64,000 bases of DNA from assembly GCF_003334305.1 (NCBI RefSeq), contig NZ_QOWS01000002.1, one strand, 5' to 3'. Of this stretch, positions 48,609 through 52,847 are shown piece after piece. Each line of letters starts with the position of its first letter. Position 1 is the first letter of the stretch. A program made the position numbers and the translations under genes. The stretch comes from Escherichia coli. GTDB taxonomy: Bacteria; Pseudomonadota; Gammaproteobacteria; Enterobacterales; Enterobacteriaceae. The notes beneath the pieces were generated by a model. That model was not told where the DNA came from, searched no databases, and was given only the letters and a program-made list of their open reading frames with translations.

Positions 48609-50048
48609 ATGTCAGTACCCGTTCAACATCCTATGTATATCGATGGACAGTTTGTTACCTGGCGTGGAGACGCATGGATTGATGTGGTAAACCCTGCTAC
48701 AGAGGCTGTCATTTCCCGCATACCCGATGGTCAGGCCGAGGATGCCCGTAAGGCAATCGATGCAGCAGAACGTGCACAACCAGAATGGGAAGCGTTGCCT
48801 GCTATTGAACGCGCCAGTTGGTTGCGCAAAATCTCCGCCGGGATCCGCGAACGCGCCAGTGAAATCAGTGCGCTGATTGTTGAAGAAGGGGGCAAGATCC
48901 AGCAGCTGGCTGAAGTCGAAGTGGCTTTTACTGCCGACTATATCGATTACATGGCGGAGTGGGCACGGCGTTACGAGGGCGAGATTATTCAAAGCGATCG
49001 TCCAGGAGAAAATATTCTTTTGTTTAAACGTGCGCTTGGTGTGACTACCGGCATTCTGCCGTGGAACTTCCCGTTCTTCCTCATTGCCCGCAAAATGGCT
49101 CCCGCTCTTTTGACCGGTAATACCATCGTCATTAAACCTAGTGAATTTACGCCAAACAATGCGATTGCATTCGCCAAAATCGTCGATGAAATAGGCCTTC
49201 CGCGCGGCGTGTTTAACCTTGTACTGGGGCGTGGTGAAACCGTTGGGCAAGAACTGGCGGGTAACCCAAAGGTCGCAATGGTCAGTATGACAGGCAGCGT
49301 CTCTGCAGGTGAGAAGATCATGGCGACTGCGGCGAAAAACATCACCAAAGTGTGTCTGGAATTGGGGGGTAAAGCACCAGCTATCGTAATGGACGATGCC
49401 GATCTTGAACTGGCAGTCAAAGCCATCGTTGATTCACGCGTCATTAATAGTGGGCAAGTGTGTAACTGTGCAGAACGTGTTTATGTACAGAAAGGCATTT
49501 ATGATCAGTTCGTCAATCGGCTGGGTGAAGCGATGCAGGCGGTTCAATTTGGTAACCCCGCTGAACGCAACGACATTGCGATGGGGCCGTTGATTAACGC
49601 CGCGGCGCTGGAAAGGGTTGAGCAAAAAGTGGCGCGCGCAGTAGAAGAAGGGGCGAGAGTGGCGTTGGGTGGCAAAGCGGTAGAGGGGAAAGGATATTAT
49701 TATCCGCCGACATTGCTGCTGGATGTTCGCCAGGAAATGTCGATTATGCATGAGGAAACCTTTGGCCCGGTTCTGCCGGTGGTCGCATTTGACACGCTGG
49801 AAGATGCTATCTCAATGGCTAATGACAGTGATTACGGCCTGACCTCATCAATCTATACCCAAAATCTGAACGTCGCGATGAAAGCCATTAAAGGGCTGAA
49901 GTTTGGTGAAACTTACATCAACCGTGAAAACTTCGAAGCTATGCAAGGCTTCCACGCCGGATGGCGTAAATCCGGTATTGGCGGCGCAGATGGTAAACAT
50001 GGCCTGCATGAATATCTGCAGACCCAGGTGGTTTATTTACAGTCGTAA
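48609..50048 (+). CDS. aldA: lactaldehyde/glycolaldehyde dehydrogenase
   Basis: ALDH motifs LPWNFP, ELGGKAP, catalytic Cys in SGQVCNCAERVYV. Confidence 0.9.
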   Translation: MSVPVQHPMYIDGQFVTWRGDAWIDVVNPATEAVISRIPDGQAEDARKAIDAAERAQPEWEALPAIERASWLRKISAGIRERASEISALIVEEGGKIQQLAEVEVAFTADYIDYMAEWARRYEGEIIQSDRPGENILLFKRALGVTTGILPWNFPFFLIARKMAPALLTGNTIVIKPSEFTPNNAIAFAKIVDEIGLPRGVFNLVLGRGETVGQELAGNPKVAMVSMTGSVSAGEKIMATAAKNITKVCLELGGKAPAIVMDDADLELAVKAIVDSRVINSGQVCNCAERVYVQKGIYDQFVNRLGEAMQAVQFGNPAERNDIAMGPLINAAALERVEQKVARAVEEGARVALGGKAVEGKGYYYPPTLLLDVRQEMSIMHEETFGPVLPVVAFDTLEDAISMANDSDYGLTSSIYTQNLNVAMKAIKGLKFGETYINRENFEAMQGFHAGWRKSGIGGADGKHGLHEYLQTQVVYLQS

Positions 50049-50055
50049 TGAGTAA

Positions 50056-50085
50056 AAGAGGCGGAGGTTTTTTCCTCCGCCTGTG
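50056..50085. terminator. hairpin between convergent aldA and gapC
   Basis: GGCGGAGG-TTTTTT-CCTCCGCC. Confidence 0.45.
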
Positions 50086-50089
50086 CGCG

Positions 50090-51091
50090 TCAGAGTTTAG
50101 CGAATTTTTCGAGGGTGCGAATAAGCTGCGTGACGAAGCCATATTCGTTATCGTACCAGGCGACCGTTTTCACCAGTTGTAAATCGCCCACGGCGGTAAT
50201 TTCCGTTTGCGTGGCATCAAACACCGAACCGAAATGGCTGCCAATGATATCGGAAGAGACTATTTCTTCATCGGTATAACCAAATGACTCGTTATTGGTG
50301 GTTGCTTGTTTAAGTGCGTTATTCACCTCTTCGGCAGTCACTTTTTTTCCGAGAATGGACACCAGCTCAGTGACCGAACCTGTTTTCACCGGCACGCGTT
50401 GCGCATGACCTTTCAGTTTGCCGCTCAGTTCCGGGATCACCAGACCAATGGCTTTTGCCGCCCCCGTAGTGTGGGGAATGATATTTTCTGCCGCTGCGCG
50501 TGAAGCACGTAAATCTTTACCACGTGGGCCATCCACCAGTGACTGGGTGCCAGTATAGGCATGAATGGTCGTCATCGTGCCGACTTCTATCCCGAAACTG
50601 TCATGCAAGGCTTTGGCCATCGGCGCAAGACAGTTAGTGGTGCATGACGCCACGGAAACAATGGTGTCGTTGCCATCCAGAGTGTCGTCATTGACGTTAT
50701 AAACGATAGTTTTCATTTCACCGGCAGGGGCGGAAATCAACACCTTCTTCGCACCAGCATCAAGATGCGCCTGCGATTTCTCGGCGGAGGTATAAAAGCC
50801 AGTACATTCGACAATGATTTCTGCACCTTTCGCTTTCCACGGAATATTTTTAGCCTCTTTTTCGGCGTAAACCGCGATACTTTTCCCATCAACGATAAGT
50901 GAATCTTCCGTAAAATCAACGCTCCAGGGGAATGGTCCGTAGTTTGAATCATGTTTCAGCAGGTAGGCGAGAATTTTTGGGGAAGTGAGATCATTAATAG
51001 CGACAACGTCTATGTTGCTTTTGACTTCAAGTAATCGACGCAACACCAGTCGACCGATACGACCAAAACCGTTAATACCAACTTTACTCAT
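50090..51091 (-). CDS. gapC: glyceraldehyde-3-phosphate dehydrogenase, intact reading frame
   Basis: Uninterrupted 333-aa ORF with NAD-binding [10 protein letters not shown] and active-site [10 protein letters not shown]. Confidence 0.9.
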
Positions 51092-51279
51092 GGTTTTCTC
51101 CTGTCAGGAACATTCGGATGAAAATTGATCCTTTCCAGGCTTAGACCAGGATTGTGGGATGGGCAATCTCCATTCTTACAGTGAAACGTAACGTACTGAA
51201 AACGGGTGAACAATATTTAATGAAATTTTGAGAAAAGCCCGTTATGTTAACGGAAAATTATGTTAAAGCAGGAAATGTT

Positions 51280-51810
51280 ATGGAAAATAAATACTCAAGG
51301 TTACAAATCAGCATTCACTGGCTGGTCTTTTTGCTGGTTATCGCAGCGTATTGCGCAATGGAGTTTCGTGGTTTCTTCCCACGTAGCGATCGGCCACTCA
51401 TCAACATGGTTCATGTTTCCTGTGGTATCTCAATTCTCGTGCTGATGGTGGTTCGTCTTTTGTTAAGACTGAAATACCCAACCCCGCCGATTATACCTAA
51501 GCCAAAACCGATGATGACGGGACTGGCGCATTTGGGACATTTGGTGATTTATCTCCTGTTTATTGCGCTGCCAGTGATTGGTTTGGTGATGATGTATAAC
51601 CGGGGCAACCCGTGGTTTGCGTTTGGTTTGACGATGCCTTACGCTTCAGAGGCCAATTTCGAACGGGTTGATAGCTTAAAGTCGTGGCATGAGACGCTGG
51701 CGAATCTGGGATATTTTGTCATCGGGTTGCACGCTGCGGCTGCACTGGCACACCACTATTTCTGGAAGGACAACACACTTCTACGCATGATGCCGCGTAA
51801 ACGTTCCTGA
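51280..51810 (+). CDS. cybB: cytochrome b561
   Basis: 4-TM b561 fold with conserved His; likely start MENKYSRLQISIHW. Confidence 0.85.
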   Translation: MENKYSRLQISIHWLVFLLVIAAYCAMEFRGFFPRSDRPLINMVHVSCGISILVLMVVRLLLRLKYPTPPIIPKPKPMMTGLAHLGHLVIYLLFIALPVIGLVMMYNRGNPWFAFGLTMPYASEANFERVDSLKSWHETLANLGYFVIGLHAAAALAHHYFWKDNTLLRMMPRKRS

Positions 51811-52054
51811 AGGATATTTAAAGAAAACGCCTGTACTAAAACCGACCCGTGGTACAGGCGAAGAATACGGGTCTACATCGGAAGCGCCTATTATATTTAT
51901 TTGTATGACAAATAAAACCATAATCCTTGCCCATACGTCCATCTGGCTTATTTTTAATCAATTCACCCGATCTTTGATCTCATCAACGGTATCAAAATAA
52001 ACCAGCGTATAACGTTCAAATCGAACATAAGATTCGATAAACCATGGAGGTTAT

Positions 52055-52300: not shown

Positions 52301-52508
<208 letters not shown>

Positions 52509-52847
52509 CGTTGGCCTCGGTTGATAGAAATATCGGTCGGGGCCTTCGTCTTTCTGATTCCCGGTTAGCCTGAAAACAGAAAGTCTCAGGCACCCGCAGG
52601 CATCCTATGAGGTTTCCTTAGGGACGAAAATAATCACTTCACGAAATTGCGTGCTGTTTTCCAGAATTTTTCGTCATTCGGGTTAGCCAGTTTAGCCATT
52701 CGTTACTCTCTTCATTCCAATAGCATTAATTTTCTCTGCAATAATTGTTGTAAAAATGTGACGCAAAGAGGTTTTTGGTCATAAGTAATTACCGTCAAGT
52801 GCCGATGACTTTCTATCAGGAGTAAACCTGGACGAGAGACAACGGTA

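Follow-up and report, generated by a model that had tools for sequence, protein, structure and literature searches.

An intact gapC gene outside K-12 is already known, and long established, in Escherichia coli. GapC of E. coli O157:H7 is listed in UniProt (P58072), and a 1998 report, as summarised in PMC2949598, described the gene as intact in environmental isolates. Hidalgo 1996 and Espinosa-Urgel and Kolter 1998, in the form in which they are cited, likewise described truncated gapC as a feature of laboratory strains, natural isolates having the gene intact. The usual statement, in the words of the summary in PMC2949598, is that gapC mutations were accumulated by laboratory strains. Under the name EcGAPDH1, a protein identical to that considered here was purified and crystallised in earlier work, which also included an enzyme assay (PMC8615399). 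Its activity was followed through NADH formation and its KM for glyceraldehyde 3-phosphate (G3P) was 0.73 mM; the assay conditions were pH 10 and 50 C and therefore provide little information on the flux through GapC in vivo. Activity was abolished in the C150A mutant and reduced by 10^3-10^4-fold in C150S and H177A, the loss in H177A being approximately 8000-fold (PMC8615399). Crystal complexes were obtained with NAD, G3P, phosphate, the thioacyl intermediate and 1,3-bisphosphoglycerate (1,3-BPG), and NAD is bound through Arg11, Asp34 and Asn315 (PMC8615399). The authors of that work do not name the gene gapC; the link is one of sequence identity. What is mildly new in the present analysis is a modest refinement of this picture, consisting of gapC allele counts in the population and the order in which the two K-12 lesions arose.

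The window, a stretch of 64,000 nucleotides from E. coli contig NZ_QOWS01000002.1, contains the following features in and around gapC.

48609..50048, plus strand: aldA, an intact 479-codon open reading frame, convergent with gapC.
50059..50082, no strand given: a G+C-rich hairpin located between the stop codons of the converging genes aldA and gapC.
50090..51091, minus strand: the gapC coding sequence, with an ATG start, 333 codons and a TGA stop (from the open reading frame listing).
50342..50348, minus strand: an A7 homopolymer made up of the third base of Gly248 with Lys249 and Lys250, at which K-12 has a -1 frameshift (A6).
50561..50563, minus strand: the codon for the catalytic His177.
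50642..50644, minus strand: the codon for the catalytic Cys150.
50975..50977, minus strand: codon 39, AAA (Lys), which in K-12 has mutated to the nonsense codon TAA (from the MG1655 alignment).
51092..51279, no strand given: the 188-bp divergent gapC-cybB intergenic region, presumed to be the gapC promoter and regulatory region.
51098..51102, minus strand: a Shine-Dalgarno sequence, AGGAG, read off the sequence 6 nt upstream of the gapC ATG.

An earlier note on this DNA had described gapC as an intact frame of 333 codons that retains a NAD-binding motif and a catalytic-cysteine segment, and our findings confirm that description. The open reading frame on the minus strand is uninterrupted, with zero internal stops before codon 334 in both the open reading frame list and the alignment checks, and the two segments correspond to residues 5-14 and 148-157, respectively. 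The window gene is free of the internal stop, frameshift or truncation that would mark a pseudogene, and both the AAA codon of Lys39 and the A7 run are intact. Its product has Cys150, His177, Arg11, Asp34 and Asn315, together with the motif G8-F-G10-R-I-G13. The signals that flank the frame are also in place. The AGGAG sequence is unchanged in 18 of the 18 gapC upstream regions that were aligned, and the hairpin beyond the stop codon has 9 pairs followed by a T-run, with an RNA fold of -18.5 kcal/mol (z = -5.0 against shuffled sequences); it is probably a bidirectional intrinsic terminator that would serve aldA and gapC alike.

The GapC protein scores 447.3 bits against the NCBIfam model for type I GAPDH, TIGR01534 (curated cut-off 367.2), the alignment covering residues 3-325 and model positions 1-330 of 330. 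The Pfam domains Gp_dh_N (residues 3-102, E 2e-35) and Gp_dh_C (residues 155-313, E 1e-57) are both essentially full length, and this, with the passing of the TIGR01534 cut-off, means that the frame is not a chance open reading frame. The model, the two-domain architecture, in which a Rossmann NAD-binding domain at the N-terminus is followed by a catalytic domain, and the catalytic and NAD-binding residues place GapC among the type I phosphorylating NAD-dependent GAPDH enzymes (EC 1.2.1.12). A protein of the GAPDH family might instead act mainly on another substrate or cofactor, such as erythrose-4-phosphate or NADP, or belong to the ArsJ-associated enzymes. For such an identity one can cite Epd, an established E. 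coli precedent for a GAPDH paralogue whose substrate has changed, and the sub-threshold matches that GapC gives to the erythrose-4-phosphate dehydrogenase (E4PD) and ArsJ-associated models. Those matches lie far under the cut-offs: GapC failed both E4PD models, TIGR01532 (276.6 vs 530.55) and NF010058 (280.2 vs 539), and the ArsJ-associated model NF033735 (306.8 vs 450), leaving TIGR01534 as the sole GAPDH-family NCBIfam model whose cut-off it passes. An arsJ gene is not annotated as a neighbour of gapC in identical DNA, the acidic residue Asp34, which favours NAD over NADP, is present, and the protein of identical sequence oxidises G3P with NAD+ and has yielded crystals containing NAD, G3P and BPG (PMC8615399). 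We regard a different main substrate or cofactor as extremely improbable. The Epd-like, ArsJ-associated and type II GAPDH identities were all rejected as being below their cut-offs.

Type I GAPDH thus remains our assignment, and the protein on which it has been examined biochemically is the same one. Window GapC is identical over 333 of 333 residues to the untagged part of PDB entry 7C5F ("EcGAPDH1") and also to 7C5H, 7C5P and 7C7K; it also matches the wild-type sequence from which the C150 and H177 mutants in other structures were made, and the identical protein has more than a dozen PDB entries. An assay of the cloned gene had been called for in the earlier note, and in effect its result is already published for the identical sequence (PMC8615399). 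As judged from sequence, the assignment of GapC in this strain as an NAD-dependent type I GAPDH, the second of E. coli, is supported by the activity measured on that protein. The 50090..51091 minus-strand gene is an intact gapC allele specifying a homotetrameric, NAD-dependent, phosphorylating type I GAPDH, in which Cys150 attacks the aldehyde of G3P, His177 assists the transfer of hydride to NAD+, and phosphate cleaves the thioacyl intermediate to release 1,3-bisphosphoglycerate.

Over 25 kb the window matches natural isolates at 100% identity, an example being strain A7 from orangutan faeces, and PGAP annotates identical DNA with an intact 'gap' gene, WP_000048667.1. The gene lies between aldA (convergent) and cybB (divergent) and has at least 95% DNA identity to other E. 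coli, as expected of the gapC orthologue group. The identity to natural isolates and the conserved aldA-cybB context mean that the window gene is the chromosomal gapC of natural E. coli. Of the 5426 complete E. coli genomes searched with a 1261-bp query, 5418 have the locus, in every case flanked by aldA and cybB; 5408 of the 5426 contain 80% or more of the query, nearly all of them with 95-100% identity. A small number of matches (3-5 places) fell on records classed as plasmids, which may reflect replicons wrongly assigned, pieces of chromosome borne on plasmids or errors of assembly. The 90% cluster of GapC includes entries labelled Shigella sonnei and Citrobacter freundii. At the end of the window, the DNA from about 63522 to 64000 carries, in the identical sequence of strain A7, the annotation of a frameshifted IS200/IS605 tnpA pseudogene that contains an internal stop.

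The earlier note gave the K-12 gene as a disrupted pseudogene and proposed an alignment to locate its lesion; that description of K-12 is correct. The orthologous coding sequence of MG1655 is flagged 'frameshifted; internal stop', and the alignment places the damage at codon 39, now a stop, and at the A7 run, which has lost 1 bp. MG1655 and the window gene differ at 8 positions in approximately 1002 bases: the change of AAA to TAA at codon 39 (window 50977), the loss of one A from 50342-50348 (codons 248-250), R18G and five synonymous changes. Queries of 55 nucleotides found the TAA allele in 1155 and the AAA allele in 3882 of the 5426 complete genomes. The exact K-12 A6 haplotype was found in 1046 genomes with a 55-mer query; carriers of A7 were read from the 98.2% and 92.7% identity bands of the same K-12 A6 query. 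A megablast query placed on the A7/T7 run itself (50318..50372) returned no match despite the thousands of genomes that have the sequence, probably through low-complexity masking, which is a reason for care when alleles are counted with short queries.

Strain EC291 from pig faeces (L008, 201-1202) has an intermediate gapC allele, in which the stop at codon 39 is accompanied by an intact A7 run. The nonsense mutation therefore most likely preceded the frameshift, and the sequences suggest that K39* arose first and A7 to A6 second within a natural lineage. Besides laboratory strains, carriers of the TAA allele include isolates from pigs, chickens, dogs, humans, flies, sea water and sediments, so that the stop seen in K-12 is not a product of laboratory culture. 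This distribution refines the usual view, found in PMC2949598, of mutations accumulated by laboratory strains: the allele of K-12 is derived and belongs to one natural lineage, and the intact allele is the common state of the species.

From an evenly spaced ranking of the 5418 genomes with a match, alternate rows were taken, and the reading frames of the resulting 20 genomes were checked. Intact gapC was present in 15, the K-12-type stop in 4 (two of these being K-12 derivatives, counted from identical match statistics), and in 1 the gene was mostly deleted. In this last strain, SCPM-O-B-7615 from raw milk (L020, 529-2706), IS1A replaces the 3' end of aldA and approximately 800 bp of gapC, leaving a 198-bp N-terminal fragment; the IS1-associated deletion is an independent route to the loss of gapC. 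A separate case is that of E2863 (NZ_AP018802.1; L002, 257-1559), whose gapC region is 100% identical to the window and whose aldA is annotated as frameshifted. From strain to strain, aldA and gapC decay independently of each other. In nature gapC is dispensable, given the K39* allele in about 21% of complete genomes, a value that overstates the natural frequency as the genome collection is rich in K-12 derivatives, and given the deletion in one sampled strain.

Repeated natural loss, by K39* in 1155 of 5426 genomes, by the later frameshift in 1046 and by the IS1-associated deletion in SCPM-O-B-7615, is what might be expected of a cryptic gene that is drifting towards loss, and gapC in the window could on that account be intact yet effectively silent, its lineage not yet having acquired a lesion. 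The pattern of substitution does not fit such neutral drift. Among fifteen distinct intact alleles, 69 synonymous sites are segregating, and the 12 codons with amino acid polymorphism contain 14 segregating sites; none of the polymorphism among these alleles affects a catalytic residue. Pairwise dN/dS ratios are 0.03-0.06 at dS values up to 0.21, with a mean of 0.041, and therefore indicate strong purifying selection on the GapC protein across the species. The sequence ahead of the gene points the same way: the Shine-Dalgarno site is invariant, and the upstream region, with 21 of 188 columns variable in 18 strains, is less variable than the synonymous sites of the gene, of which 69 among approximately 238 are segregating. 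A consensus scan did not detect a strong sigma-70 promoter for gapC, and this would favour a silent gene; transcription from the gapC promoter is, however, documented both in K-12, where the gapC fragments are transcribed in an RpoS-dependent manner and induced by carbon limitation (PMC2759082; PMC4512719) and where ChIP-seq places a peak of sigma-S RNA polymerase between gapC_1 and cybB (PMC4447067), and in EPEC, in which gapC mRNA has been reported (PMC6333774). With this evidence in hand we think it very unlikely that the window gene is silent.

The consensus scan yielded a single sigma-70-like match on the minus strand, at 51286..51257, and this was dropped as a candidate gapC promoter: shuffled sequences gave more matches, so that the count is no better than chance. 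The divergent cybB gene upstream of gapC is started by PGAP at the equivalent of window position 51280 (51280..51810, 531 bp, 176 amino acids), 36 nt later than the ATG at 51244 in the mechanical open reading frame list (51244..51810, 188 amino acids), and the length of the intergenic region hinges on which start is correct. Just downstream of cybB is the small RNA RydC (51821..51884, minus), one of the matches in the window at the Rfam gathering threshold. The others are sok, the antitoxin RNA that belongs to hokB (52444..52595, minus), FnrS (4807..4924, plus), MicC (9735..9855, plus) and McaS (1334..1429, minus), all five RNAs being expected for this region of E. coli.

The K-12 transcript data, together with summaries of earlier work, suggest that GapC is expressed conditionally. 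Espinosa-Urgel and Kolter found gapC to be expressed preferentially in fresh water, as their work is summarised in PMC2949598 and PMC1796617, and GapC would accordingly be a conditional isoenzyme, RpoS-dependent and associated with starvation and fresh water, and not the main glycolytic enzyme. We hold with high confidence to the explanation as a whole, that gapC in this strain is intact and encodes an active second GAPDH serving as a conditional isoenzyme, its expression, regulation and role in the strain being what we infer. The earlier note had proposed a second functional GAPDH adjoining aldA, and that proposal gains support from the intact gene, from the 333/333 identity to the active EcGAPDH1 (PMC8615399) and from the dN/dS ratio of approximately 0.04. 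More tentatively, the K-12 pseudogene may be an old natural loss-of-function polymorphism, K39* followed by A7 to A6, held by about one-fifth of complete genomes while the remainder are under strong purifying selection, a situation that niche-dependent selection would fit. It is speculation that gapC brings a benefit away from the host or during starvation, and that it was not needed, and may even have been a burden, in the lineage that lost it.

The finding itself has little import beyond correct annotation. It does serve as a reminder that most natural E. coli encode a second, catalytically competent GAPDH and that metabolic models with one GAPDH, or expectations from gapA knockouts, do not transfer automatically from K-12 to most of them. 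In non-K-12 hosts and pathogens, in gene-essentiality screens and in studies of 'secreted GAPDH', GapA and GapC must be told apart. The population data also illustrate neatly, on a small scale, how a gene is turned into a pseudogene step by step in a single species, first by nonsense mutation and then by homopolymer frameshift, with an independent IS1-associated deletion in addition.

Among known systems the closest is GapC of O157:H7 (P58072; WP_000048667.1; 7C5F), and the window represents another strain with this common allele. Carriers of WP_000048667.1 with the identical protein include E2863, O104:H4 FDAARGOS_349, D6, Bongo, JSWP021 and A7, all with the same aldA-gapC-cybB context. The K-12 pseudogene (gapC_1/gapC_2, b1417/b1416) is orthologous, with approximately 99% identity across the gene and 98.7% over the 1261-base query, and has the same neighbours and a near-identical upstream region; it differs in carrying the K39 stop, a -1 frameshift at the A7 homopolymer and R18G, all three of which are missing from the window. 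The housekeeping enzyme GapA (PDB 1S7C/1DC4/1GAD) is encoded at a different locus and is approximately 46% identical to GapC. The GapA sequence used for the comparison was confirmed against PDB, its length and score being identical to those of the chains named 'GAPDH A'. Against PRK15425, which we take to be the GapA-type model, GapC scores 300.6 (cut-off 662). The two enzymes share the fold family, the chemistry, the catalytic Cys and His, the SCTTNCLAP segment, the phosphate-site arginines and the NAD-binding GxGxxG motif, and differ in regulation according to the literature. Epd (GapB), the erythrose-4-phosphate dehydrogenase, is a paralogue of the GAPDH superfamily in the same genome; GapC, unlike Epd, falls widely short of both E4PD models, and its activity with G3P and NAD has been measured on the identical protein (PMC8615399).
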